A stretch of DNA of 64,000 nt from Parcubacteria group bacterium Gr01-1014_3 (GTDB taxonomy: Bacteria > Patescibacteriota > Minisyncoccia > UBA6257 > WO2-44-18). The DNA lies in contig VMGF01000003.1 in the NCBI GenBank assembly GCA_007376445.1, forward strand, positions 31,024 to 95,023, in the 5' to 3' direction. Positions 6,110-62,547 of this stretch are shown one piece after another (position 1 is the first letter of the stretch; every line of letters begins with the position of its first letter). Below the pieces are notes generated by a model that had not been told where the DNA came from, did not search any database, and saw only the letters and a program-made list of their open reading frames with translations. The position numbers were made by a program, and so were the translations under genes.

Positions 6110-6240
6110 TTGACAATATAAATTTTCAATTCGCAATTTTACAATTTTCAATCAATTTCCAAGCATGAATTTTCAAATAGTTTGAACTTTCGGTCTTGAC
6201 CCTTGAATGAAAATTGGTATTTGAAAATTGAGAATTAAAG
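6110..6240. repeat. intergenic repeat family A copy 1 (CAATTTTCAAT...GGTCTTGA...GAATGAAAATTGGTATTTGAAAATTGAGAATT)
   Basis: Near-identical blocks at 44075-44190, 47365-47516 and 50210-50290. Confidence 0.7.
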
Positions 6241-6245
6241 AACAT

Positions 6246-9966: not shown

Positions 9967-10075
9967 GAAAATAAGAGCAGGTGACGAGAATCGTCCGGTC
10001 ATACGACCGGACAGCCCAGTCGGATGACTGGGCGAACTCACGTCTCTACTTTACCCCGCACCTTTTCTCGATTAG

Positions 10076-10147: not shown

Positions 10148-10181
10148 AAATTTTATACGTGATCGAGAAAAGGTGCGGGGT

Positions 10182-10218
10182 TTACGAAAGTAGTGTTCTA
10201 CCACTGAACTATATCGGC
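10182..10218 (-). pseudogene. tRNA 5'-half fragment (acceptor, D-arm, anticodon stem-loop CTACT-TTCGTAA), no 3' half
   Basis: GCCGATATAGTTCAGTGGTAGAACACTACTTTCGTAAA then runs into inverted-repeat sequence; no complementary 3' acceptor nearby. Confidence 0.45.
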
Positions 10219-10284
10219 GTCTCTCTTTATTTAAATACTAGGTCATATTATAACATTTTGCGGATTTTTTCAAAGAAAATAATG

Positions 10285-12030: not shown

Positions 12031-13851
12031 CTACTTTTTTAACAATTCCTTAAAAATGTTCGCGGGAATTTTTATTTGAGAGCCTTCACCGCGTTCTTTC
12101 AAGCGCTCCTTGCCACGTTGCTGCTTCTTCCAAAGCTTCATCTTGCGGGTGCGATCACCGCCATTTTTTCCGAAATCACCGAGATCTTTCTTGAGCGCCG
12201 GAATCGTCTCGCGCGCCACAATTTTACCGCCCACGACCGCCTGCAAGGCTTGAGTAAACTGCTGGGCTTGCAACAATGTCTTTAATTTCTCCACAGTCAT
12301 CCGGCCTTCCCGTTCGATCTCTTTTTTTGGAATAATTCTGGTTAAACCCGGGATCGCGTTGGCGGCCACGTGGATCTCCAGCTTCGCCACATTAGCCAGA
12401 GCATATCCGACCAGCTCATAACTCAAAGAGGCAAAACCATTAGAAACAGACTTCAATTTGTCGTCGAGATCACTGATCAGATCGGCGAGCGGCAGTTTCG
12501 CGGAAATTAAAATATTGTTGCCGAAATTCTTGGTTTCAATTTCGCTGAATCGGAAAATTTCCTTTAGCTGTAAGATCGCGCCAAGATATTTTGTCGGAGT
12601 TAATATTTCGATCTTTGAGATCGGCTCCTCCACCGCCTCCGCGTCGTTCGGAAAATCTTTCGGATTGGTGATCACCCTCCATTCACCCTTTTCTTTCACT
12701 CGATAAGCCACGGATGGGAAGCTGTGCACGGTTTCGATCTTAAACTCGCGCGCCAAACGCTCGGCGGTAATTTCAAAATGAAGCCGTCCTAAAAATCCGC
12801 CCTTGAATCCCCGGCCCAGAACTTCGTTCATATCCGCTTCAAATTTCAGCGAAGCGTCAGTGAGGCGTAGCTTTGATAGCGCTAGTTTCAATTCGTCATA
12901 TTGATCGGTATCTTCCGGATAAAATGACACGAAAACCACCGGCTTTGGCTCGCGATAACCAGGCAAAGCCATCTTTTTTACTTCCGCGGAAAGCGGTTGC
13001 TTCGAGGAAAGCAGCGTATCTCCGATTTTCAGCTTATCGGAATCCTTAATACCCGTGGCGATATAGCCGATCTCCCCGCTTTGAATAGATTTAGAAGGTT
13101 TTGGCTTCGGCGCGAAGTATCCTACTTCTTTTGCTTTGGCGGTGGTGTTGGTAGCGTTTAAAAAGATGTTGTCGTTTTCATTAAAGGATCCATTAAAAAC
13201 CCGGATATGAGCCAGGACGCCCTTGTGTTCGTCGTAATAAGAATCAAAAACTAAAGCGCGGGATAATCCGGCAATAGTTTGCGGTTCGCTCGGGGCCGGA
13301 ATTTTTTCCACGATTTTCTGCAAAAGAGTTTCCACGCCAATGCCCGTCTTTCCGGATACTTTCAAAATTTCTTCAGGATCCAAATTTAATAATAAACTCA
13401 AATCGTTTATGGCCGCTTCGATCTGATCCGGATCGGCCGCGTCAACTTTATTCACCGCGCCGATGATCGTCAGTCCGGACTTCCGGGCATTCTCAAAATT
13501 CGCCAAAGTCTGCGCCTGGATACCCTGCGTGGCGTCAACTAAAAGAACCGCGCCCTCCACGGCCGCGAGCGCGCGCGAAACTTCATAACCGAAATCAGAG
13601 TGCCCTGGCGTATCAATCAGATTCAGGACATAGGGTATAGCGTTTAGGGTATAGGACATTCTGACTGGAGCCATTTTGATGGTGATTCCTCTCTCCCGTT
13701 CCAACTCCAGCTGATCCAAAAACTGCGGCTTCATGAGCCGCTTTTCAATCGTGCCAGTGGATTCCAAGAGCCGGTCCGCCAAAGTGGACTTTCCATGGTC
13801 TATGTGCGCGATTATGCAGAAATTCCTGATGTGACTAGTCAACTGGTTCAT
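12031..13851 (-). CDS. lepA: translation elongation factor 4 (LepA) with Lys-rich C-terminal tail
   Basis: AHIDHGKST, DTPGH, NKVD GTPase motifs; LepA-specific C-terminal domain. Confidence 0.9.
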   Translation of the reverse strand: MNQLTSHIRNFCIIAHIDHGKSTLADRLLESTGTIEKRLMKPQFLDQLELERERGITIKMAPVRMSYTLNAIPYVLNLIDTPGHSDFGYEVSRALAAVEGAVLLVDATQGIQAQTLANFENARKSGLTIIGAVNKVDAADPDQIEAAINDLSLLLNLDPEEILKVSGKTGIGVETLLQKIVEKIPAPSEPQTIAGLSRALVFDSYYDEHKGVLAHIRVFNGSFNENDNIFLNATNTTAKAKEVGYFAPKPKPSKSIQSGEIGYIATGIKDSDKLKIGDTLLSSKQPLSAEVKKMALPGYREPKPVVFVSFYPEDTDQYDELKLALSKLRLTDASLKFEADMNEVLGRGFKGGFLGRLHFEITAERLAREFKIETVHSFPSVAYRVKEKGEWRVITNPKDFPNDAEAVEEPISKIEILTPTKYLGAILQLKEIFRFSEIETKNFGNNILISAKLPLADLISDLDDKLKSVSNGFASLSYELVGYALANVAKLEIHVAANAIPGLTRIIPKKEIEREGRMTVEKLKTLLQAQQFTQALQAVVGGKIVARETIPALKKDLGDFGKNGGDRTRKMKLWKKQQRGKERLKERGEGSQIKIPANIFKELLKK

Positions 13852-21875: not shown

Positions 21876-22796
21876 TCACTGCCTTACTAACTTTAAAACT
21901 CCGCCGCTCCAACTCGAACCCATCGTCCCCTTCTCCAGGGTAGTGAAGATCTGCGCCCCCGCGGATTTGAGACGAGCGAGCGCTGCCGGCGTGGGGTGGC
22001 CGTAAGTATTTTTGCCAACTTCGATGATCGCGGCCTTCGGTTTTACCGCGGCTAAAAATTCCGCGCCGCTGGAAAATCGAGAACCGTGATGCCCGACCTT
22101 CAAAATATCCGCCGATAGATCGTATCTTTTCATCAACTCGTTTTCGACATTAAAGCCAATATCTGCCGTAAATAAGATCTTGAAGTTCTTGTCGCGAAGC
22201 ATAGTCACCAAGCTGGTGTCGTTTAGCTCGCTACTTAATAGATCACCGCTATTCGGAGAAAGAATGCCTAAGGCCGTATCCTCGTGAATTATCCGATCTT
22301 CCTCCGCTAATTGAATATACGGAACGCCCCGATTCTGAAGCTCGTTGATTAGAGTCTGATAAGCTCCGGCAGTGCCTTTTCTGCCATTCCCAATAAACGC
22401 TCCGACTTCATAATTTTTCAGCACATCAATAAACCCTCCGAAGTGGTCTAACTGGGGATGGGTCATCAAAAGCATATCGATATACCGGTCCTGGGGCGGT
22501 AAGACTTTGGCCAGCGCCGTTAACACTTTGCCATCCGGATTCCCAGCATCGATCAATAACTTCGGGCCACCAGGAAAAATAATCAGCTGGCTATCCCCTT
22601 GCCCGACATCCAGAAAATAAATTCTGGCACTATCACGCGTGATAGTGCTTGCTTGGATAATCTGATACCAGACAATTCCGTCCAGCAATAATAACGCCGC
22701 TACAATATATAAAACCCAGTTAGACTTTTTTGCTTTGGAATTTTTGTTCAGCATAATAGACAAGTCCAATAAGCGCGGCCCAATAAAGCACGCCAT
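21876..22796 (-). CDS. comEC: ComEC C-terminal metallo-beta-lactamase domain protein (split from N-terminal part)
   Basis: HxHxDH-type MBL motifs (HPQLDH, HHGSR); likely starts at internal Met near 22754. Confidence 0.7.
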   Translation of the reverse strand: MACFIGPRLLDLSIMLNKNSKAKKSNWVLYIVAALLLLDGIVWYQIIQASTITRDSARIYFLDVGQGDSQLIIFPGGPKLLIDAGNPDGKVLTALAKVLPPQDRYIDMLLMTHPQLDHFGGFIDVLKNYEVGAFIGNGRKGTAGAYQTLINELQNRGVPYIQLAEEDRIIHEDTALGILSPNSGDLLSSELNDTSLVTMLRDKNFKILFTADIGFNVENELMKRYDLSADILKVGHHGSRFSSGAEFLAAVKPKAAIIEVGKNTYGHPTPAALARLKSAGAQIFTTLEKGTMGSSWSGGVLKLVRQ

Positions 22797-25376: not shown

Positions 25377-26573
25377 TTATTTAATTATTCCCCCGCCAAG
25401 CATCGTACCTTTCTTATCATAAAAAACTGCCGATTGGCCGGGGGCTACAAATTTCATCGGACGATGAAATTTTAGTTCACCAGTTTTAAGTTTAAAGTTT
25501 AAAGTTAGAACAGCGGGTTGAAGAGGCTGGCGGTAGCGGACGCGGGCGGAAACCGGAATAGCTGTAAGATTGCCGCGGCGCTTTGCGCCTCGCAATGACA
25601 GGGGTTCGAAAAATAAATTAACATCGGTTAATACGACTTCTTTCCGGTAAAGTGCCGGGTTGTCTTCGCCTTCGGCGACGACCACGATATTTTTCTTTAT
25701 ATCTTTACTGGCCACATAAAGCGGCTTGTCGCTACCGCCGACGCCAAGGCCGTGGCGCTGGCCGATCGTATAGAAATGGGCGCCGTGATGCTCTCCTATC
25801 TCGTTGCCGTGAATATCTAGGATTGCTCCCTTCTTCGGCTTAATGTATTTCGCCAAAAAATCCGGCAAAGAAACCTGACCCAAAAAGCAGATGCCCTGCG
25901 AATCCTTTTTCGTGGCATTGTGCAGGCCAAACTTTTCAGCCAGTTTTCGAACCTGCGGCTTTGTGTAATCCCCAACCGGGAACAAACAGTGCTTCAACTG
26001 CTCGGGCTTGAGTGTCCACAAAAAATAAGATTGATCCTTGTTCTTGTCCTTAGCGATCGCTATCATTCTAACTTTCAACTTTGAACTTGGAACTTTTAAC
26101 TCGCGCAGTAGCGCGTAATGCCCCGTCGCCACGAAGTCCGCGCCCATCTCCAGGGCTTTTTTATAAAATAAACCGAATTTAATTTCCTTGTTACACATCA
26201 CATCCGGATTCGGCGTGATCCCTTTTTTATATCCATCCACCATATACTTCACCACTAGGTCTTTATATTCCTGCTCGTAATCAAAAGCGTAAAACGGGAT
26301 ATTCAGATGCTCCGCCGCCCGGCGCGCGTCTTCGGCGTCCTCTGCGGCACAACCATCCACATTGAAACACTTCAAGTGAACTCCCACGACATCGTAGCCT
26401 TCCTTTTTCAGCAATGCCGCGGCTACGGACGAATCAACGCCGCCTGACATACCTACAAACACCCTTCGGCTTGGTTCGGCTACGCTCACCACGAGTCGCT
26501 CAGGGTAAACTATTTTTTGCTTAGAGTTCTTCTTCACGGAATATATTTTACGATAAATTTTCCAAATTGGCAA
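25377..26573 (-). CDS. mnmA: tRNA-specific 2-thiouridylase MnmA, with two in-frame low-complexity insertions
   Basis: VGMSGGVDSSV PP-loop, catalytic Cys region, YFLW motif. Confidence 0.9.
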   Translation of the reverse strand: MPIWKIYRKIYSVKKNSKQKIVYPERLVVSVAEPSRRVFVGMSGGVDSSVAAALLKKEGYDVVGVHLKCFNVDGCAAEDAEDARRAAEHLNIPFYAFDYEQEYKDLVVKYMVDGYKKGITPNPDVMCNKEIKFGLFYKKALEMGADFVATGHYALLRELKVPSSKLKVRMIAIAKDKNKDQSYFLWTLKPEQLKHCLFPVGDYTKPQVRKLAEKFGLHNATKKDSQGICFLGQVSLPDFLAKYIKPKKGAILDIHGNEIGEHHGAHFYTIGQRHGLGVGGSDKPLYVASKDIKKNIVVVAEGEDNPALYRKEVVLTDVNLFFEPLSLRGAKRRGNLTAIPVSARVRYRQPLQPAVLTLNFKLKTGELKFHRPMKFVAPGQSAVFYDKKGTMLGGGIIK

Positions 26574-29015: not shown

Positions 29016-29092
29016 TGTAAATTTTCAATTTTAAATTTTGAAATTTTAATTTAAATTAAAATTTATAATTTCAAATTTTAAATTATTGAGTA
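29016..29092. promoter_or_regulatory. AT-rich palindromic leader element family B copy 1 (contains perfect palindrome AAATTTTAATTTAAATTAAAATTT), directly upstream of tgt
   Basis: Near-identical blocks upstream of rplL (35869-35951) and rnc (46806-46876); no Shine-Dalgarno. Confidence 0.6.
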
Positions 29093-33492: not shown

Positions 33493-34383
33493 TTAGATAA
33501 GCTGTGCCGCCCGTAACTTAGCCGAGCGCGACCTTGGGTTGGTCATAATTTCTGGGTTGGTGGCAATAATGGGTTTTTTTGTCAGGGTTTTCAGTTTCCC
33601 GGATTTTTCGAGGTCACGGAAAGAGTTTTTAACGATCCGGTCTTCCAGGGAATGGAAAGAGATAATGGCGACCCGGGCGCCTGGCTTCAGGATTGTTTCC
33701 AGATTATTTAAAGCTTGCTGTAGATTCTCTAATTCCCGGTTGGCGTAGATGCGGAGCGCCTGGAATGTCCTGGTGGCCGGATGAATACGCCCGCGTTCGT
33801 AGTTTTCCGGAACTGCCGCCTTAACTATTTCGGCCAGCTGCTTGGTAGTCTCGATAGATTTCTTTCTGCCCGCCGCTTTAATGGCCTTGGCAATCTTTGG
33901 CGCGTAACTCTCTTCGCCAAACTCGCTGATGATTTTCGTAAGCTCGGCCTCGGAAAGTTCTTTTAAAATTTCTTGGACTGATTTTGAAGTGGCGCTATAA
34001 GTCATGATCAGCGGCTCGTCGGACTGGAAGCTGAATCCCCTGCCTCCGCCGATCTGTTCGGAAGAAAATCCCAGATCCAAAATCAACCCATCGGCTTTGT
34101 GTAATTTTTTACTTTCCAAAATCGCCGGAAGGTCGGCGTAATTCTCGCCGGTCTTTTCCCAGTCTATTCCCAATACATGCCCGGTGAGACCAACTTTTTC
34201 CCGCAGTGCCGCGGTGTGGCCCTCAGCTCCGGCTGTGCCGTCAATAAAAAATTCTCCCGGCTTCGGATCCAGAACTTTAATAACCTCGTCGAGCAGAACT
34301 GGAACATGTTTAGAATTAGGAATCATGAATAAGGAATTATGGTTGATTAGTTTTATTTGTTTGGGGTGATTTTGAAAATTCAT
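33493..34383 (-). CDS. rsmH: 16S rRNA (cytosine1402-N4)-methyltransferase
   Basis: MraW family SAM-binding motifs (DGTAGAEGH). Confidence 0.9.
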   Translation of the reverse strand: MNFQNHPKQIKLINHNSLFMIPNSKHVPVLLDEVIKVLDPKPGEFFIDGTAGAEGHTAALREKVGLTGHVLGIDWEKTGENYADLPAILESKKLHKADGLILDLGFSSEQIGGGRGFSFQSDEPLIMTYSATSKSVQEILKELSEAELTKIISEFGEESYAPKIAKAIKAAGRKKSIETTKQLAEIVKAAVPENYERGRIHPATRTFQALRIYANRELENLQQALNNLETILKPGARVAIISFHSLEDRIVKNSFRDLEKSGKLKTLTKKPIIATNPEIMTNPRSRSAKLRAAQLI

Positions 34384-34394
34384 AATTCTTGATT

Positions 34395-34826
34395 CTAAAT
34401 TCCTAATTCTCCGAGCTTCTCAGCGATATCGTCGGATGAAGCTTCGGTTTTTGATTTGTAAGATTTCCAACTTGCCTCATCCCAGATTTCGATTCGGTCA
34501 TACAGACCCGCGAAGATTGCCTGTTTTTTTAAAGACGCGTAGTTTCTCAAGTATTCTGGAATTAAAATTCTTCCCTGATTATCAAACTCAACTTCGCTCG
34601 CGCCCGCGAGCATCAAACGAGCGAATGCCCGAGAATCGGATTTCATAAAAGACATGCCGGCAATTTTGGCGGTTAATTTTTCCCAGCTTTCTTTTGTAAA
34701 TACAAACAAGCAGTGATCCAATCCGCGCGCGATAATTGCTCCATCGCCAAGCTGCGGCCGAAATTTAGCCGGTAAAGCTACGCGTCCTTTATTGTCTAAA
34801 CTATGTGTATATTCGCCGATGAACAT
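34395..34826 (-). CDS. mraZ: transcriptional regulator MraZ
   Basis: Duplicated DxxxR motifs, MFIGEYTHSLDNKGRVALP. Confidence 0.9.
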   Translation of the reverse strand: MFIGEYTHSLDNKGRVALPAKFRPQLGDGAIIARGLDHCLFVFTKESWEKLTAKIAGMSFMKSDSRAFARLMLAGASEVEFDNQGRILIPEYLRNYASLKKQAIFAGLYDRIEIWDEASWKSYKSKTEASSDDIAEKLGELGI

Positions 34827-41864: not shown

Positions 41865-44048
41865 CTATTCCAGTTTTACGGAGAGTAATCGCGAAGTTCC
41901 ATCGCTTCCCATCGTAACGCCATACATGATATCCGCCGATTCCATGGTGGCGCGATTATGCGTGACAATAATAAACTGAGTTTTGGAAGAAAAATCTTTA
42001 ACCAGTTCCGCGAACTTTCGCGCGTTGCGTTCGTCCAGGGCGGCATCTACTTCATCAAGCACCAAAAACGGCGGTGGACTGACGGAAATCAAGGCAAACA
42101 AAACCGCCACGGACACCAAGGCCTTTTCTCCGCCAGAAAGCATTTCGAGGCCACTGATCTTTTTGCGAGGAATACTGATGCCCATCTCAATGCCACCGTG
42201 GTCGAATTTATGGTCCTCCTCCCTTTCCGCCGCCCCCTGCCTACCGGCAGGCAGGTCCTCCACCATCGCTTCCTCGGCTTCACTTATAATTTTCTTTTCT
42301 TTTTTAACCAGAGTTAGCTTTGCTGATCCGCCGTCGAAAAGCAGTTTGAAATATTTATTGAATTCTTCGTTGATGGACTTGAGCGCGCTGTTAAATTCTC
42401 CGTGAATTTTCTCATCCAAGTCATTAATAAGTAAGGCGAGATCGGCTGAAGCTTTTTTCAAATCTTCATTTTGCGCGGACAAAAAATTGTAGCGTGATTC
42501 AGTTTCCTGCGCTTCTTTAACTAGCGCCGGATCAAGATCACCAATACCAGCCAACTCCGCGCGCAGCTTGAACATCCGCTTCTCCATCTCGGCGAAATCG
42601 CTAGTCTTTCCGCCCGAGGCGGATCCTCGTTGGGAGGAAAATTCATGCAATCGGCGGCCAGATTGCATCGCCAGGTTTTCCAGTTCTTTCCGGCGGATCT
42701 CTACTCTTTCTCTTTCAAATAAAATTTTATTCTTCTCGGTATCCAGACGCGCCATCTCATCTTTTTTCTGCTCGACTAATTCAAAGGCTCTCCGGAAAGT
42801 GCCGGTGAACTGCTTGAGCGTGTCGTTGAGGTGGCTTTCCGCCTCCCTAAGCTTATTTAAATCAGCGTCCACCGTCTGAATATCCGCCATCGCCTTTTTC
42901 TTAGCACTATCCAATTCAGCGATCTTTTCATCCCGGCCGGAATTATCTGCCTGCAAGCTGTCATCGATACGCTTGATCAGCTTTTGCAAAAGCGACTTCA
43001 CTGCGCCAAAATCGCCTTCATTTAATACCGCGCCAATCGCGCCCTTCACTTCCTCAAGCAGTTTCACCGCCTCCGCGGCTTTAATTTCGCTCTTCGGCTG
43101 AGCCGCCAAAAACTCCATCTGCGCCTCCAAACGGCCAAGTTCTTTTTGAAGTAAAGATTTCCGGTTTAGAACATCGCTCTGCTGTTTTTTAAAATCGTTG
43201 AATCCTTTGTCGTCGGAAGGCTGAGCTTTTTCTACTTTATGTAATTCTTCCTGTAATTTTCTTAATTCTTGATTCTTGATTCCTACTTCCTGATTTATTT
43301 TTTGGATCTGCGGTTCAATGGCGGAAAAATCCGATTCGATCACGCCGAGTCTTCCGCTGAAATAATTTTCCTCCAAAGTTCGCAATTCTTTTTCGACTTC
43401 GGCATGCTTTTCCCAACGCGTGGTCTGGCGTCTTAATAACCGAAGATGTGGCAGTATCTCCTGCACCATCGCCTCCACCTTATCGAGGTTGATCTTGGTA
43501 TTCTTCAGTTTATTCTGCGCCTCATGCTTTTTGAGCTGATACTGACGAAGGCCGAGTACCTCTTCGATCATCTCGCGCCGTTCTTCCTGGCTAGCCCGCA
43601 CGAATAGATCGCTACTGCCCTGGTTTATGATAGAAAACCCTTTTGTGCCGAGGCGGGCTTTGGCAAAAAAATCGATAATGTCTTTTAAGCGGACCTCCGA
43701 GCCATTTAATAAATATTCCGAAGTGCCATCGCGGCTAATCTTGCGGGTAATCGCGATCTCGGTGTAATCAATGGGAAAAAACCGGGTGCTGTTGTCGAAA
43801 ACAATGGTCGCCTGCGCCATACCAACACGCGGGCGCTCCGGCGTGCCAGCGAAGATCAGATCTTCCGCTTTGGCGCCACGGATATTTTTCGCTTCGCGTT
43901 CACCCAAAAGCCAACGCAAAGCGTCGATGACATTCGATTTACCAGAACCATTCGGACCAACAATAGCCGTGATTCCAGCCGGAAAATCGAGCGTGGTTTT
44001 GGAAACAAATGACTTAAAACCCACCAGCTCTAACTGCTTAAGTAGCAT
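41865..44048 (-). CDS. smc: SMC-family chromosome segregation ATPase (short, 727 aa)
   Basis: N-terminal Walker A GPNGSGKSN, long coiled coil, C-terminal LSGGEKALVSVAVLFAL...LDEVDAALDE. Confidence 0.8.
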   Translation of the reverse strand: MLLKQLELVGFKSFVSKTTLDFPAGITAIVGPNGSGKSNVIDALRWLLGEREAKNIRGAKAEDLIFAGTPERPRVGMAQATIVFDNSTRFFPIDYTEIAITRKISRDGTSEYLLNGSEVRLKDIIDFFAKARLGTKGFSIINQGSSDLFVRASQEERREMIEEVLGLRQYQLKKHEAQNKLKNTKINLDKVEAMVQEILPHLRLLRRQTTRWEKHAEVEKELRTLEENYFSGRLGVIESDFSAIEPQIQKINQEVGIKNQELRKLQEELHKVEKAQPSDDKGFNDFKKQQSDVLNRKSLLQKELGRLEAQMEFLAAQPKSEIKAAEAVKLLEEVKGAIGAVLNEGDFGAVKSLLQKLIKRIDDSLQADNSGRDEKIAELDSAKKKAMADIQTVDADLNKLREAESHLNDTLKQFTGTFRRAFELVEQKKDEMARLDTEKNKILFERERVEIRRKELENLAMQSGRRLHEFSSQRGSASGGKTSDFAEMEKRMFKLRAELAGIGDLDPALVKEAQETESRYNFLSAQNEDLKKASADLALLINDLDEKIHGEFNSALKSINEEFNKYFKLLFDGGSAKLTLVKKEKKIISEAEEAMVEDLPAGRQGAAEREEDHKFDHGGIEMGISIPRKKISGLEMLSGGEKALVSVAVLFALISVSPPPFLVLDEVDAALDERNARKFAELVKDFSSKTQFIIVTHNRATMESADIMYGVTMGSDGTSRLLSVKLE

Positions 44049-44074
44049 ACCTTAATTCTAAAACACAAAACTCC

Positions 44075-44190
44075 AATTTCCAATTATCAATTTTCATTCA
44101 ATACGCAATAACCAAACTTTAAACGGTTTAAAAATTGGTTCTTTGAAAATTCAATGAAAATTGCAAAATTGAGAATTGAAAATTAAAGGA
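44075..44190. repeat. intergenic repeat family A copy 2
   Basis: CAATTTTCATTCAAT ... ATTCAATGAAAATTGCAAAATTGAGAATTGAAAATT inverted arms. Confidence 0.65.
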
Positions 44191-44194
44191 GCCC

Positions 44195-45991
44195 CTATGG
44201 GGCTCCGTCAACTATCGCTTCGACTTCTCGTCCATCCAGCGTTTCTTTTTCCAGAAGAGCTTTCGCTATTTTTTCAAGCTTATCCTGATTATCTTTAATC
44301 AACTTCACTGCTAGCTCATAAGCCTCGTCCAGAAGCTTTTTCACTTCCGCGTCAATGATCTGCTTAGTCGCTTCGGAACAATTCATCGTGTCGGAGGTAA
44401 TGTTCAAGAACGCCGCCCGAGTCACAAAAACTTCCTTTCCGACCTTGTCGCTCATGCCATACTCACACACCATAGCTCTCGCAACTCGGCTTGCTTCGCG
44501 GAAATCAGATGAAGCGCCGCTACTTTCGGAATTGAACTTGTACATCTCACCGGCTCGGCCACCCATCATCACCGCCATCTGCGCTAACATCATTTCCTTG
44601 CTTTGAATATGAACGTCTTCGTCCGGAAGCATCCACGTCGCGCCACCCGATGGTCCGCGCGGAATGATCGTCACGATGCGGACAGGATTTGATCCTTTAT
44701 TCCGCAAAAGCGTGGTGATCAGAGCGTGGCCGCCTTCATGATAAGCCGTAATAGCTTTTTCCCGGTCGGGAATAAAATTCTTCGATGCCGCGCCCATCAT
44801 CACTTTAATGATCGCCTCATCCAGATCCGCGCTATCAATCGCGGGTTTTTTCTTACCAACCGCGGCAATTGCCGATTCGTTCATAACCGCGGCCAAGTCA
44901 GCGCCAGAAAACCCGGAAGTGCCCTTAGCAACTCTTTGCAGGCTCACGTCCGGAGCTAATTTCTTACCCTTAGAATGAACCAAGAGAATTGCTTCTCTTG
45001 ATCTAACGTCGGGACGAGCAATTAATATCTTTCGATCTAGCCGGCCAGGCCGGACAATTGCTTCGTCAAGCGATTCTGGGCGGTTCGTCGCCGCCAGAAC
45101 TACCACTCGGTCAGAACTGGAAAAACCATCCATCTCGGTCAAAAGCGAGCTCAAAGTTTGATTGTATTCCTCATGCGTCATGCGCATTGTCCGAGTGCTA
45201 GCAACAGTATCCAATTCATCAATGAAGATGATACAGGGCTGACTCTTGCGGGCTTTCTCAAACATTTCACGGACTCGGCCAGCGCCAACGCCAACGAACA
45301 TTTCCACGAACTTAGAGCCATCCATGCTGATAAAAGCCATATTGGATTCCCCGGCCGTAGCTTTGGCCAGCAAAGTTTTGCCGTTACCAGGAGGTCCAAC
45401 TAGAAGAACTCCTCGCGGAACCTTAGCGCCAACGTCAGTATACTTTGTCGGATTATCAAAAAAATCGACGATCTCTTTCAACTCCTTGATCGCTTCATCG
45501 CAACCGGCCACGTCAGAATATCTCTCCTTCGGTCGCTTTGCTTCGCCGATCTTAGTCTGATCCATGGCCATCTGCCGCTGACGTTTATTGATCCAGAGCA
45601 TCGCGGCGATCAGCAGTAAAATCGGACCAAAGATAAACAACAGGGTGAAGATAATACTCCAGCCCCACCAGGCAGCTTCGGTCTTTTGGCGAGTTACGGG
45701 TATGCCTTTAGCGACCGCTTTCTCCACGAGATCGTTCACGTCAAAAACGGTAGACCGGAATTTATTGCCGTCTGTATATTCGCCTGTCGCGATGGCCGAC
45801 TCCACGTTAACCGCTAACGACTTAACATTTCCATCATTGATTGCCTTATAAAGCTCGGTGACCGTGATGTCCCGCGCTGCTTCCGTAATCGGAACACGCA
45901 CAACTATCATCGAAAGGGCTATCATGATCAGCGAAGCTATAAAAAATATCCGTAAGAAAGCTCTCAGCGGTGAAGGCGGTTTATTTTCCAC
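44195..45991 (-). CDS. ftsH: ATP-dependent zinc metalloprotease FtsH
   Basis: GPPGNGKT Walker A, AAA SRH, HEGGHA zinc motif. Confidence 0.9.
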   Translation of the reverse strand: MENKPPSPLRAFLRIFFIASLIMIALSMIVVRVPITEAARDITVTELYKAINDGNVKSLAVNVESAIATGEYTDGNKFRSTVFDVNDLVEKAVAKGIPVTRQKTEAAWWGWSIIFTLLFIFGPILLLIAAMLWINKRQRQMAMDQTKIGEAKRPKERYSDVAGCDEAIKELKEIVDFFDNPTKYTDVGAKVPRGVLLVGPPGNGKTLLAKATAGESNMAFISMDGSKFVEMFVGVGAGRVREMFEKARKSQPCIIFIDELDTVASTRTMRMTHEEYNQTLSSLLTEMDGFSSSDRVVVLAATNRPESLDEAIVRPGRLDRKILIARPDVRSREAILLVHSKGKKLAPDVSLQRVAKGTSGFSGADLAAVMNESAIAAVGKKKPAIDSADLDEAIIKVMMGAASKNFIPDREKAITAYHEGGHALITTLLRNKGSNPVRIVTIIPRGPSGGATWMLPDEDVHIQSKEMMLAQMAVMMGGRAGEMYKFNSESSGASSDFREASRVARAMVCEYGMSDKVGKEVFVTRAAFLNITSDTMNCSEATKQIIDAEVKKLLDEAYELAVKLIKDNQDKLEKIAKALLEKETLDGREVEAIVDGAP

Positions 45992-46805: not shown

Positions 46806-46876
46806 AGACAAATTTTAAATTTTTAATTTTGAAATTTTAAATTAATTTAAAATTTTTAATTTATAATTGAAAATTA
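46806..46876. promoter_or_regulatory. AT-rich palindromic leader element family B copy 3, directly upstream of rnc
   Basis: TTTAAAATTTTTAATTTATAATTGAAAATTATT core. Confidence 0.6.
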
Positions 46877-47350
46877 TTTTTCAGCCGCTTTCTCTTTCTT
46901 CTCCCTCTTCGGCTCCTCTTTCAAGTCGCCTGAGGCGATCATCTGCTTATAAACCGTGCCAAGCACGCCATTAATAAATTTACCGGAATTCGGACCGCCG
47001 TAATTTTTCGAAATCTCAATGGCTTCATTAATCGCCACCTTCGGTGGAACTTCCTCATGATCGGCATACATCAGCTCATAAAGTCCGATACGAATGGCAT
47101 TGCGGTCAATAATCGCGATCTGCTCAAGCGGCCAATCCGGCGCGACCTTCGTGATTATCTCGTTCAGGTCTTTTAAATGTTCAACTATCCCCTTTACTAA
47201 ACGCCAGGCAAAATCCGGCTCATCGATACCCGGAGCGAACTCCAGTAAGTTCCTCTCAACGATCTTGATAAGGTCATTCTTCTGACTATAAAAATCCCAC
47301 TCGTACAAAGATTGTAGGACTACGGAACGCGCTAGTTGTCGAGTAGCCAT
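46874..47350 (-). CDS. nusB: transcription antitermination factor NusB with Lys/Glu-rich tail
   Basis: NusB fold signature. Confidence 0.85.
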
Positions 47351-47364
47351 GTTTTTATTATTAC

Positions 47365-47516
47365 AGAAAAATTCTCAATTTTCAAATACCTGTTTTTGAA
47401 TTTCCAAATATCAATTTTGCAATTTTCAATCAATTTACAATGAATTAATTTTCAAAACCATTGATCCTTAGGTCTTGATGATTGAATGAAAATTGGTATT
47501 TGGAAATTGAAAATTA
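47365..47516. repeat. intergenic repeat family A copy 3 (longest)
   Basis: Aligns along about 110 nt with copy 1 at 6128-6240. Confidence 0.7.
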
Positions 47517-47766
47517 CTTAGAGGATCCGTAGTGGGCGCACTGTGGGCAGGTTTTGTGCGACAAAACCGGACCCTGGCAATTCGGGCATACGGAAATATT
47601 CAGCTTCTTGAGGGCCATATGCGAACGCCTGCGCCCCGTCTTCCCTTTTGAATGATGTTTTGTTGGTACACCTCCCATAAATTTATTAGTTAGATTATAT
47701 AGCTATTTCAGATTTTCGTCAACTTTGACTTTCAAATACACCGAGGCGTAAAATTAAGGGAGTTGT

Positions 47767-50182: not shown

Positions 50183-50209
50183 ACAATCGTCCCCGCAAAT
50201 GCGGGGACT

Positions 50210-50290
50210 TTTAATTTTCAATTCTCAATTTTGCAATTTTCAAATTTGGAAATTGAATGAAAATTGGTAATTGGAAATTGATAATTGGTG
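50210..50290. repeat. intergenic repeat family A copy 4 (short)
   Basis: CAATTTTGCAATTTTCAAATTTGGAAATTGAATGAAAATTGGTAATTGGAAATTG. Confidence 0.65.
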
Positions 50291-50324
50291 TTGTATAGTC
50301 TTGGTAGTTACTTGAAAGGGCTCA

Positions 50325-51068
50325 TTGGTGGAGAAAATTCTCTCGATCACGCTTGCGCTGATCTTCTGTCAGGCCTGTACTCCCGCGGAGATCCAGCCAC
50401 TACCCGATCCCCTAGCGAATTTGCCGGTCAAAACCGCCCAGCAGATCTACGACGAAGCTGATTATTTCGTGATGATTGAAGGAAGCCGGTACGCCGATGG
50501 CGATTTTCAATCCTTCAAGCTTTCCGGGTTTTTGCTTCAATACGCCGACACCTACTATATAGTTACCGCCGGGCATATCAAAAAACCCGGACAGATCATC
50601 TCCGAACCTCTCCGTGTAACTTTGAAAAATGAGACGAACCGTTACTATCACGCCAAAATTCTCGCGATAGATAATGACTATGACGTGGCAATCCTGAAGA
50701 TCGGTTCGGACGCCTTCGATTTTCGCGGCAATATCGGCAAGTTCGGGAACTCCGACTTGGTTGAATTAGATGATCCAGTAATATCCATCGGGAATCCGCC
50801 CGGACACGACTGGCATCTTTCCACCGGAAAAGTGTTAAGTCGGAACTATCGCAACTATAAAAACGTCGCCAAGCATATTCAGCATTCCGCCTGGGGCGGC
50901 CATGGCAGTTCCGGCGGCCCATTACTCAACCGTTACGGTCAGATCATCGGCATGAACATTTCGATGAAGACCGCCAGCATCGACGAAACGAGCTCGAACC
51001 GGATCAACGCTCTTCCCGCGAAATATATTCAAAGATTTTTAGAAAAGGTTTTGCAAAATCCCCACTAG
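50325..51068 (+). CDS. trypsin-like serine protease without PDZ domain, paralog 3
   Basis: Signal peptide; VTAGHI, DVAIL, GSSGGPL triad. Confidence 0.7.
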   Translation: MVEKILSITLALIFCQACTPAEIQPLPDPLANLPVKTAQQIYDEADYFVMIEGSRYADGDFQSFKLSGFLLQYADTYYIVTAGHIKKPGQIISEPLRVTLKNETNRYYHAKILAIDNDYDVAILKIGSDAFDFRGNIGKFGNSDLVELDDPVISIGNPPGHDWHLSTGKVLSRNYRNYKNVAKHIQHSAWGGHGSSGGPLLNRYGQIIGMNISMKTASIDETSSNRINALPAKYIQRFLEKVLQNPH

Positions 51069-55015: not shown

Positions 55016-55047
55016 CCACCCCACTATCACATGTGATAGTGGGGTGG
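55016..55047. promoter_or_regulatory. 32-bp perfect palindrome CCACCCCACTATCACATGTGATAGTGGGGTGG overlapping the promoter (TATAAT at 55048-55053) of the HTH gene
   Basis: Palindrome immediately followed by TATAAT and an 11-nt leader. Confidence 0.7.
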
Positions 55048-55557: not shown

Positions 55558-55585
55558 CAGCCACTATCACATGTGATAGTGGCTG
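55558..55585. promoter_or_regulatory. 28-bp perfect palindrome CAGCCACTATCACATGTGATAGTGGCTG downstream of the HTH gene
   Basis: Third copy of the palindrome family. Confidence 0.7.
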
Positions 55586-56185: not shown

Positions 56186-57907
56186 ATGAAAGAGAATGGG
56201 TCTCTCGAAAATATACGGCACTCGCTCGCCCATCTTTTGGCGGCGGCGGTTTTGAAAAAATACCCGGACGCTAAACTCGGCATCGGTCCGGTGATTGAGA
56301 ATGGATTTTATTATGATTTCCTCCTGCCAGCCGCTCTGACCCCGGAAAATCTCAAAGAATTTGAGAAAACGATGAGGAATCTGGTAAATCAGAAGCTCCC
56401 TTTCTCTGGCAAAGAAGTCAGCGCCGCGGAAGCCAAAAAACTCTTCAAAGATCAGCCATTCAAGCTAGATCTCATAAAAGAATTCGCTAAGGATAAAAAA
56501 CCAATGACCGTATATTCAACCGGCGAGGTCTTTATGGATCTCTGTCGCGGCGGTCATGTGGAAAGTACATCGGAAATCAACGCCGAATCCTTCAAGCTCG
56601 ACAAACTCGCCGGCGCTTATTGGCGCGGTGATGAGAAAAAGCCACAACTCCAGCGTATCTATGGCTTGGCTTTCGCCTCGAAAAAAGAGCTCGAAGAATA
56701 TGTAAAAATGCGCGAAGAAGCTATTAAGCGCGATCACCGCAAGCTCGGTAAAGACCTCGAGCTCTTTTCGATCATTGATGAAATTGGTCCTGGCCTTCCC
56801 CTCTTTTATCCAAAAGGCGCGCTTCTCCGCCGCTTAGTAGAAAATTATATTATTCAGCTTCAGGAACAACGCGGCTATGAGCCGATCTGGATTCCCCACA
56901 TCACCAAAGGCGAGCTTTATAAGATCTCCGGCCATCTGGATAAATACGACGCCATGTACCCGCCGATGAAGCTCAAGAACGAAGCGGATTATTATCTGAA
57001 ACCGATGAACTGTCCGCACTTCATGATGCTTTATAAAACCCTGCCGCATTCCTATAAAGAGCTTCCAATCCGCTGGACCAGCACTACCACCAATTATCGC
57101 TATGAAAAATCCGGCGAACTCTCCGGCTTAACCCGCGTCCGCTCGCTCACCCAGGACGACTGCCATGTCTTCGCCCGGCCCGATCAGATCTCCGGAGAAA
57201 TAAATCTTATGCTGGATATGATCGCGGAAGTATACGAAAAATTCGGCTTTAAGGATTTCTGGGTCCGCATCTCCACTCATGATCCGAAAGATAAGACGAA
57301 ATACATCGGTGATCCGAAAATCTGGGAAGAATCGGAGGCGACTCTGACAAAGCTAATCGAAAATCGCGGCTGGAAACACGAAATCGGCGTGGGCGAAGCG
57401 GCTTTCTATGGACCGAAGCTGGATTTCATCTTCAAAGACGTTCTCGGCCGCGAATGGCAACTCTCCACCATTCAGCTGGACATGAACCTGCCGGAAAGAT
57501 TTGAATTGGAGTACGTCGGTGAAGACGGAAAGAAACAAAGGCCCGTGGTCATTCACCGCGCCATCCTCGGCTCTACAGAACGCTTCCTCGGAATTTTGAT
57601 AGAACATTTTGGCGGCAACTTCCCTCTCTGGCTCGCGCCGGTGCAGATCCGCATCATCCCTATCGCCGACCGGCATCTGGATTACGCCAAGAAAGTCGCC
57701 GCTCAACTCAAAGATTATCGAGTAGAGATTGCCGGCGAAAGCGAAACTATGGGTAAAAAAATCCGCGCCGCGGAGATGCAAAAAATTCCATTTGTCTTAA
57801 TCATGGGCGATGAAGAAGAAAAATCCGATACTGTCAGCGTGCGTGAAGGTCACAAGGGTGATCAGGGCAAGATGACAATAGCCGATCTCCTAAAGAAGTT
57901 AGTATAA
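56186..57907 (+). CDS. thrS: threonyl-tRNA synthetase lacking the N-terminal TGS domain
   Basis: HSLAH editing motif at the N-terminus, class II core, anticodon-binding domain. Confidence 0.9.
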   Translation: MKENGSLENIRHSLAHLLAAAVLKKYPDAKLGIGPVIENGFYYDFLLPAALTPENLKEFEKTMRNLVNQKLPFSGKEVSAAEAKKLFKDQPFKLDLIKEFAKDKKPMTVYSTGEVFMDLCRGGHVESTSEINAESFKLDKLAGAYWRGDEKKPQLQRIYGLAFASKKELEEYVKMREEAIKRDHRKLGKDLELFSIIDEIGPGLPLFYPKGALLRRLVENYIIQLQEQRGYEPIWIPHITKGELYKISGHLDKYDAMYPPMKLKNEADYYLKPMNCPHFMMLYKTLPHSYKELPIRWTSTTTNYRYEKSGELSGLTRVRSLTQDDCHVFARPDQISGEINLMLDMIAEVYEKFGFKDFWVRISTHDPKDKTKYIGDPKIWEESEATLTKLIENRGWKHEIGVGEAAFYGPKLDFIFKDVLGREWQLSTIQLDMNLPERFELEYVGEDGKKQRPVVIHRAILGSTERFLGILIEHFGGNFPLWLAPVQIRIIPIADRHLDYAKKVAAQLKDYRVEIAGESETMGKKIRAAEMQKIPFVLIMGDEEEKSDTVSVREGHKGDQGKMTIADLLKKLV

Positions 57908-58133
57908 GGGCTTCAGCGGCCGTTTTTTCTTCGCCCTCGGCGCGCCGCTCCGACTTAAGTCGGAGACCGATTATAGGATAGTCCAGCCGGCGCGCCTCCC
58001 CACGGCCCCGCTAAAAGCGGAGCCTCGCCGTTGGCGGGGCGTGGCGGGATGTTCCGAAAAATTAATTGGCCTCCGCTTTGTTAAATAAAGGAAATTATAT
58101 ATAGAAAAACCCCGTCCTTTCAAGGGCGGGGTT

Positions 58134-62412: not shown

Positions 62413-62547
62413 GACAATAATCATTTTTCGGAACATGTCGGAGCCCAGACAGCTTGGTTTTTCGCGAAGCGAAAATGTCTGGGCGAGAGAGAAGAAAATC
62501 CGGCTGCTAGAGCCGGATTATTCTGTTTCCGAAAAATGATTATTGTC
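62413..62547. ncRNA. about 135-nt structured element: 23-bp outer inverted repeat (GACAATAATCATTTTTCGGAAAC) enclosing three inner hairpins; lies where rplA/L1 leader would be expected
   Basis: Perfect outer stem plus inner hairpins CCCAGACA...TGTCTGGG, TTTTCGCGAAGCGAAAA, AATCCGGCTGCTAGAGCCGGATT; no ORF. Confidence 0.45.

Follow-up and report, generated by a model that had tools for sequence, protein, structure and literature searches.

Heptanucleotide simple-sequence repeats as the probable source of near-identical peptides in MnmA and TrmD of a Parcubacteria bacterium

In many bacteria, heptanucleotide repeats are reported to outnumber all other long simple repeats, and it was proposed that about 7 nucleotides (nt) contact the polymerase, which would favor slippage (Mrazek et al. 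2007, as relayed in PMC4679880 and PMC4692102). Repeat units that are not multiples of three are reported in the literature as mostly non-coding. The TAACTGA repeats of marine Beggiatoaceae and cyanobacteria occur in 2-6 copies and are mostly intergenic, near start codons (PMC4679880). Here, we describe tandem 7-nt repeats inside two housekeeping genes on a 64,000-nt stretch of contig VMGF01000003.1 (the window) from Parcubacteria group bacterium Gr01-1014_3, a candidate-phyla-radiation bacterium. The genes are mnmA, which encodes the tRNA 2-thiouridine(34) synthase, and trmD, which encodes the tRNA m1G37 methyltransferase. Each gene holds two segments, called S1 and S2 below. A first-pass annotation of the window had read all four as in-frame insertions of a hexamer repeat. 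Our analysis indicates instead that they are heptanucleotide simple-sequence repeats (SSRs) of a known bacterial kind, lying here in frame within housekeeping enzymes. We put the probability of this reading at about 0.7.

Tandem Repeats Finder (TRF) assigned a period of 7 to each of the four segments, which hold 3.6-5.0 copies at 81-94% matches. In mnmA, S1 (26070-26101, on the minus strand like the other three) has about 4.6 units of AAAGTTN and encodes LKVPSSKLKV; S2 (25482-25506) has about 3.6 units of TAAACTT at 94% matches and encodes TLNFKLKT. In trmD, S1 (38491-38524) is made of about 4-5 units of AAAAGTT at 90% matches, and S2 (38152-38185) of about 4.9 units of AAAACTT. The autocorrelation of the four segments peaks at lag 7 (0.72-0.79; 0.77 for mnmA S1) and again at lag 14, with lower values at lag 6 (0.42-0.56) and at lag 3 (0.07-0.26). 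The unit is thus a heptamer and not the hexamer first reported. All four segments consist of about three or more head-to-tail 7-nt copies, which places them among the heptanucleotide SSRs, and none has more than 2 perfect consecutive units.

A step of 7 nt shifts the reading frame by one. Whichever frame is chosen, a heptamer array thus cycles through the same seven codons, and three units (21 nt) read through all three frames yield one cyclic heptapeptide. A unit shared on the coding strand therefore gives the same peptide, and the KLKVxSxKLKV likeness of the two unrelated enzymes follows from one shared 7-nt unit. Both S1 segments are best fitted by (AAGTTAA)n, in the same phase. A flawless array of this unit would translate to KLKVKS*KLKVK. 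Its in-frame TAA is replaced by TCA in mnmA S1 and by AAA in trmD S1; across the 27 nt of the trmD S1 core, the one T-to-A change that removes the TAA is the sole departure from a perfect array. The best fits of the S2 segments are (TAAACTT)n in mnmA and (TTAAAAC)n in trmD, and in both the TAA has become AAA.

The period of 7 cannot stem from selection on a peptide repeat. An amino-acid repeat made by codon slippage was rejected, as it needs a DNA period that is a multiple of three, while the lag-3 values lie far below those at lag 7. We also rejected a phase-variable contingency locus, which does not fit short, imperfect arrays in housekeeping genes whose homologs are nearly all in frame. The reading frame stays open through all examined TrmD genes and all but two of about 80 MnmA loci; the two with in-frame stops were set aside without inspection.

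The DNA of the segments encodes the peptides quoted in the first-pass annotation. The nucleotide identity of about 80% between the two LKV-x-S-x-KLKVR segments was also reproduced, mnmA S1 and trmD S1 being identical at 24 of 29 nt in frame, with a BLAST E-value of 0.012. In addition, mnmA S2 is an inverted match to mnmA S1 (21 of 23 nt). The top matches of each segment within the window are the other three segments, over the repeat unit only. Three or more copies of AACTTT within 40 nt occur at only two places in the 64 kb, one in mnmA and one in trmD, and the pattern (AAAGTTN)3 with up to 3 mismatches is found 14 times, as against 0.13 expected in shuffles. The reported sequences, peptides, clustering and accompanying palindrome (see below) were thus borne out, while the hexamer unit was not and the insertions stood only in part.

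Both host genes could be assigned to their families, each product being similar to solved structures along its full length. The mnmA product, from the longest open reading frame (ORF; 25377-26573, minus strand), matches the solved structures 2hma and 2der in a PDB search with E = 7e-85 over residues 35-397, has the invariant PP-loop SGGVDS, and is 100% identical to the tRNA-specific 2-thiouridylase of Parcubacteria group bacterium Gr01-1014_3. The deposited MnmA has 386 residues compared with 398 for the longest ORF, and the real start probably lies downstream of the TTG at 26573. A promoter-like TTGCCA-17-TAAAAT at 26545-26573 coincides with the 5′ end of this longest ORF. The product of the trmD ORF (38077-38739, minus strand) matches the solved 3ky7 with E = 1e-56 over residues 1-218, contains Pfam PF01746 and is named in the source record in agreement with TrmD. 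TrmD proteins of the clade are short (203-246 residues, mostly 210-230) and stop a few residues past the KWR motif; most of the matching solved TrmD chains have about 245-275 residues.

We aligned 120 homologs each for MnmA and TrmD, and placed the segments in AlphaFold2 models of both enzymes built on 53-sequence alignments. Compared with solved homologs, trmD S2 is an insertion of 8 to 13 residues and mnmA S1 adds 5. In contrast, trmD S1 adds only 1 to 3 residues, and mnmA S2 adds about 2, which is essentially no insertion. In the models, mnmA S1 forms the tip of a beta hairpin (strands 155-160 and 167-172; predicted local distance difference test, pLDDT, 85-94), and mnmA S2 the tip of a hairpin of the C-terminal barrel (strands 352-359 and 364-374; pLDDT 95-96). 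The loop of residues 75-82, between a helix (64-74) and a strand (83-94), holds trmD S1, while trmD S2 is a flexible linker, modeled as coil at residues 184-198 with pLDDT of about 60. All four segments are thus predicted to lie at hairpin tips or loops, and the models fit the proposal of the first-pass annotation that the arrays are tolerated in surface loops of the proteins.

We compared the sites at the DNA level using 10 trmD genes, about 80 mnmA genes and five chosen close relatives. A genome scan centered on rsmH returned trmD in 10 loci and mnmA in none, so it gave no pairs of mnmA and trmD from the same genome. The mnmA S1 array of the window is shared with L146, whose MnmA is 65% identical, and this sharing spans relatives at 65-69% identity. 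In L147, the site holds a perfect (AAGTCAA)4.6 of equal length with a 1-nt shift. Across relatives the MnmA S1 site is hypervariable: at one extreme it is no more than a minimal hairpin (VRLIGNNLFEAKD), at the other it holds an insert of about 80 residues. Many of the inserts consist of heptamer arrays built on different units: (AAAATTC)4 in L062, (AAAAATC)4 in L082, (GAAAATT)4 in L070 with a TGA patched to TGG, and (GTCATTA)4 plus (CAATTAC)4 in L060 with a TAG patched to TCG. L124 carries (GAAATCC)4 at S1 and (AACCTAC)4 at S2. The peptides that such arrays place in the same loops of relatives include VISHSSLVIRN, KSEIRNPKSETN and KIQNSKFKIQN.

The TrmD sites show the same variety. At S1, L144 has (AAAAGTT)5, L143 (TrmD 90% identical) has (AGTATCA)4 followed by (AAAAGTT)2, and L145 has a GAATTAA/GAATAAA array; L011 and L031 also carry heptamer arrays of other units at TrmD sites. 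The basic character of the S1 loop is conserved among relatives at 70-90% identity, including those that lack an array. TrmD S2 is absent from L008, L021, L005 and L002, and only the nearest relatives (L143 and L145) have it; in these two, the peptide is kept while the codons change synonymously. Orthologous arrays thus vary among relatives in unit, phase and degree of perfection. As the arrays are shared with relatives, they are not recent events in this genome, and orthologous sites with other units, some of them perfect, point to turnover in place. By these sequence comparisons, the mnmA and trmD arrays are old and orthologous to the arrays of relatives. Once fixed, array peptides can come under protein-level constraint, that is, ordinary purifying selection.

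A few observations on related proteins stand beside these. The RsmH proteins of several relatives carry in-frame heptamer arrays near residues 60-100 (L010 at 10011-10036 and 10210-10235, L032 at 10201-10224, L042 at 10220-10236 and L037 at 10174-10195), so that RsmH joins MnmA and TrmD as a housekeeping enzyme in which arrays recur at a hot spot. An array of the window, at 34377-34410, adjoins the rsmH start on its upstream side. The TrmD of L145 (4033-4770) has two GC-rich in-frame inserts, PAKGEARPAG, with the palindromic DNA GGCGAGGCTCGCC, and PSTSLRAG; an AKGEAR-like motif is also present in the TrmD S2 linker of P0177. These GC-rich TrmD inserts of relatives are another class of in-frame repeated DNA.

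Heptamer arrays are also the rule outside the two genes. In 906 kb of DNA, made up of 59 related genome loci and the window, 7 is the commonest TRF period. Period-7 arrays number 145, compared with 33.7 in third-order Markov shuffles, and periods 14 and 21 are enriched as well. With strict thresholds (3.5 or more copies, 80% or more matches), period-7 arrays reach 8.1-10.9 per 100 kb and every other period at most 1.6, while two 50-kb stretches of E. coli K-12 hold no strict period-7 array. Heptanucleotide repeats are thus over-represented both against chance and against other unit lengths, and period-7 arrays dominate the tandem repeats of the window and of about 1.4 Mb of related Parcubacteria DNA. 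Their units differ widely between and within genomes. Among the 178 arrays with at least 3 copies, 87 fall within open frames that run for 200 codons or more. Of these open-frame arrays, 68 have the A-rich strand in the coding sense and the opposite holds in 17, a bias that suggests a filter for hydrophilic peptides.

Within the window, TRF reports two further in-frame arrays with period 7, a (CTATACC)-like array at 13630-13655 (minus strand), in the open frame of lepA with LepA domains found by Pfam, and a (GAATCAA)-like array at 43259-43282 (minus strand; 94% matches) in an SMC-family gene. Twelve heptamer arrays are intergenic. Three of these are (AAAATTN)n arrays found by TRF: 29018-29084, of about 10 units, between a sua5-like gene and tgt; 35877-35938, after rplJ; and 46810-46880, between nusB and rnc. 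They have 8-10 units, are partly palindromic and are the nearest sequence relatives of the coding arrays; the one at 29018-29084 matches the (AAAGTTN)3 pattern at 3 mismatches. L145 also has a similar array after rplJ.

The twelve also include four dispersed AT-rich palindromes. In one of them, E1 (50200-50295), the arms are inverted heptamer arrays, (CAATTTT)n and (GAAAATTG)n; the others of this type lie at about 44060-44195, 6110-6245 and 47370-47520. The arms are 91-100% identical between copies, the centers vary, and the palindromes fold as long hairpins. Three of them are directly upstream of hexamers that we read by eye as −35/−10-like: TTGGAA-17-TATAGT, which precedes a gene at 50325, TTGTCA-17-TAATAT and TTGAAA-16/17-TAATAA.

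Taken as an account of origin, slippage plus filtering by selection is most likely. Slipped-strand mispairing or unequal exchange of 7-nt units would create and homogenize the arrays. Selection would then keep only those that are in frame, lack a stop codon and lie at hairpin tips or loops, and would mostly put the A-rich strand, which is hydrophilic and rich in Lys, Asn and Ser, in the coding sense. Array peptides fixed in this way would afterwards be subject to ordinary purifying selection. The period of 7 in all four segments, their loop sites and the heptamer arrays of other units at the same sites in relatives fit the expansion of a slippage-prone motif tolerated in loops, which was one of the two options that the first-pass annotation had left open.

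Several points weigh against this account. It gives no reason for the preference for 7 nt. Slippage is inferred: the two independent assemblies of this organism, L140 and L141, are identical to the window and lie outside mnmA and trmD. Two features of the units are not predicted by plain slippage. Arrays of one locus resemble each other in unit more than arrays of different loci do, and AAA[G/C]TT-type units recur in the four coding arrays beyond expectation: about 13% of other arrays are within one change of AAAAGTT, which gives about 2e-3 for all four, a post hoc figure. In trmD S1, ten consecutive codons are identical to those of L144, while elsewhere the same codon is used at only 49% of identical residues, and this stretch of sequence hints at DNA-level constraint or exchange. 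Finally, coding arrays were judged by open frames rather than gene calls, and the loci were sampled around rsmH and mnmA.

The mnmA S1 site also revealed a different kind of repeated DNA. In 16 related loci, the site holds an in-frame GC-rich insert of 130-190 nt with a very stable fold, inserted in both orientations. An alignment of 15 sequences supports a three-way structure with compensatory changes at 28 of 33 pairs. A long stem closes the structure; of its two hairpins, one has a CUCCAGCGG-like loop and the other has an unpaired ACCAAGC and then CUCCGAGA. Performing a covariance-model search of 1.47 Mb, we found 39 copies, which outside MnmA are mostly intergenic. The window has three intergenic copies, two of them on the minus strand (62416-62546 and 41739-41856) and the third a weak plus-strand copy (57879-58023); examples in related loci are L086 6417-6546, L095 2126-2258 and L061 1245-1383 (antisense). 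No Rfam family matches the element, and in the window only tRNAs matched Rfam. At about 130 nt, it is a discrete palindromic element, which the four heptamer segments are not. Like the Rickettsia palindromic elements (RPEs; PMC10969869), it is palindromic and lies in frame in a housekeeping gene. We rejected the idea that the arrays are 7-bp target-site duplications left by repeated insertion and excision of such an element: the family A copies are flanked by GCTCGCT on both sides, but L091, L083, L078 and L095 have no matching flanks.

These findings raise the question of whether a lineage-wide, active process writes repeated DNA, both heptamer arrays and the element of about 130 nt, in frame into surface loops of conserved housekeeping proteins. 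The arrays and the element could then be linked, for example, if the arrays served as landing pads or binding sites or were by-products of the machinery. We looked for a firm link between the two and found none, and we hold this possibility to be unlikely.

More doubtful is the other option of the first-pass annotation, a discrete micro-element, about 30 nt long and mobile or copy-pasting, that inserted in frame and spread between mnmA and trmD. The AAA[G/C]TT units common to the four arrays, the closer likeness of units within a locus, the dispersed palindromes with heptamer-array arms and nearly identical copies, and the genuine palindromic element in frame at the MnmA S1 site would all suit such an element. 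However, the similarity between the genes is limited to the repeat unit, and the four segments have neither terminal inverted repeats nor target duplications. Insertion is also hard to reconcile with mnmA S2, which adds essentially no length, and with orthologous sites that carry other units at equal length and so point to in-place turnover. Moreover, the mnmA S1 and trmD S1 arrays are common to relatives at 65-76% identity, hence old. For these segments, then, the mobile-element part of the earlier interpretation is not supported and its slippage-prone part is retained. For the clade as a whole the idea of a mobile element keeps some ground, given the palindromic element of about 130 nt in MnmA of relatives.

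About as doubtful is convergence at the protein level, where Lys-rich amphipathic hairpins or loops would be selected, for instance for tRNA binding, and codon preference would yield the DNA repeat as a by-product. In its favor, MnmA and TrmD are both tRNA-binding enzymes, all relatives have a basic TrmD S1 loop, with or without arrays, the trmD S2 peptide is conserved despite synonymous change, and the A-rich strand is preferentially coding. But convergence predicts a DNA period of 3 or 6, and the peaks are at 7 and 14, with little signal at lag 3. The perfect form of each array holds a stop codon that had to be patched, the same loops of relatives encode quite different peptides, and the same class of array is abundant in non-coding DNA.

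We give a smaller chance still to the arrays being functional nucleic-acid signals within coding DNA, such as an internal promoter or UP-like element, a site for a protein that reads 7-nt repeats (of cold-shock or S1 type), or an RNA duplex between mnmA S1 and S2. The B. subtilis protein CspB reportedly binds direct repeats of heptamers (PMC4679880), and the trmD S1 DNA identical to that of L144 across ten codons would suit a signal, as would the intergenic arrays directly upstream of −35/−10-like hexamers (e.g. TTGGAA-17-TATAGT). Against one sequence-specific reader speak the wide differences in unit between and within genomes. Internal promoters were rejected, the promoter-like matches in the two genes being at chance level (4 versus 3.3 and 3 versus 2.7), and the promoter-like site of the sigma-factor gene is found beyond the stop codon of trmD, some 76 nt away from S2. 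The long-range RNA duplex was rejected likewise: the complementarity of mnmA S1 and S2 over 21 of 23 nt, which speaks for it, is lost in L146, L147 and other relatives.

A further point for a nucleic-acid signal comes from the palindrome AAATTTCATCGGACGATGAAATTT inside mnmA (25449-25472), adjacent to S2. The first-pass annotation had described it as a perfect palindrome with an 11-bp stem, and we find exactly this, two 11-nt arms around a 2-nt center. It encodes KFHRPMKF. The sequence AAATTT is self-complementary, so the two KF pairs of this peptide supply six of the base pairs. The inner five pairs are kept by two-sided, compensatory changes in L146 (GATCG/CGATC), L100 (GACG/CGTC) and L147 (AAC/GTT); the pairing is missing in most other relatives.

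Lastly, chance low-complexity sequence without a common cause is very improbable: the segments are short and AT-rich and the BLAST E-value of the two S1 segments is modest, but the 14 (AAAGTTN)3 matches, the two solitary AACTTT clusters and a count of period-7 arrays about four times that of Markov shuffles and far above the E. coli control all speak against it.

Other palindromes are frequent in the window, with about 27 perfect ones of at least 10-bp stem compared with about one in shuffles; by sequence, most of them look like intergenic terminator-type hairpins. One 20-nt perfect palindrome, CACTATCACATGTGATAGTG, has three exact copies and one with 2 mismatches (37355-37374, 55022-55041, 55562-55581 and 22628-22647), where 0 are expected. 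The copy within 37350-37379 looks like a terminator after the sigma-factor gene, and the family may be an operator or another small repeat family. The octamer GCGATCGC, known from cyanobacteria as HIP1, is present at 5 sites of the window, and the copy at 26049-26056 directly adjoins mnmA S1.

How do the arrays compare with described repeats? Like the long heptanucleotide SSRs of the literature cited at the outset, they are tandem 7-nt units in few copies, for which an origin by slippage or polymerase contact is proposed and whose function is mostly unknown. Such SSRs are described mainly from Burkholderia, cyanobacteria, Actinobacteria and Xanthomonas; here, in contrast, long open frames contain roughly half of the arrays, and they occur in conserved housekeeping enzymes. 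The TAACTGA repeats come close, as some arrays in reverse orientation within ORFs encode a 7-residue repeat, LSVISYQ, by the same reading through three frames (PMC4679880). However, those repeats use one unit across genomes and their in-ORF cases are in hypothetical proteins, whereas the Parcubacteria arrays have many AT-rich units, patched stops and orthologous hot spots in MnmA, TrmD and RsmH. The GGGAATC and GGGGAYT repeats of Xanthomonas and Nostoc (PMC4692102) are heptamer arrays as well, which favor about four units, sometimes as inverted pairs, near ORF ends; the arrays described here, at about 24% G+C, are unable to form G-quadruplexes.

Likenesses to other kinds of repeats are more partial. 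RPEs share the tolerance of repeated DNA in frame at permissive sites of unrelated housekeeping genes, but they are discrete palindromes of about 150 bp with a conserved peptide, while the four segments are 25-35-nt arrays without element ends (PMC10969869). As in the phase-variable repeats of Haemophilus and Neisseria, non-triplet units lie in reading frames, so that gain or loss of a single unit would throw the gene out of frame. The phase-variable tracts are long and perfect and turn surface or restriction genes ON and OFF, whereas our arrays are short and imperfect and lie in essential tRNA-modification genes. Borg tandem repeats are fast-evolving nucleotide repeats that likewise add peptide segments to proteins, but in the Borg Sm-protein example whole amino-acid units of 4-17 residues are repeated, unlike the 7-nt unit running over three frames here (PMC9879509). 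Our literature search found no paper that connects Patescibacteria or candidate-phyla-radiation bacteria with heptamer repeats or with palindromic elements lying in frame. Compared with known heptamer repeats, the arrays are unusual in their coding frequency, their patched stop codons and their orthologous hot spots in essential enzymes.

In summary, near-identical peptides in two unrelated enzymes are reduced to a rule: a single 7-nt unit translated through the three frames yields a single cyclic heptapeptide, with its stops patched. Parcubacteria thereby join the lineages with dominant heptanucleotide repeats, half of which survive here within genes, essential tRNA-modification enzymes included. 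Annotators and structural modelers of candidate-phyla proteins should expect DNA-derived low-complexity segments in loops, and the MnmA, TrmD and RsmH hot spots lend themselves to tests of the 7-nt preference. The GC-rich element may be the Patescibacteria counterpart of the Rickettsia palindromic elements. If repeats were indeed written in frame by an active process, this writing, and not passive slippage, would be driving the evolution of protein surfaces in such reduced genomes.

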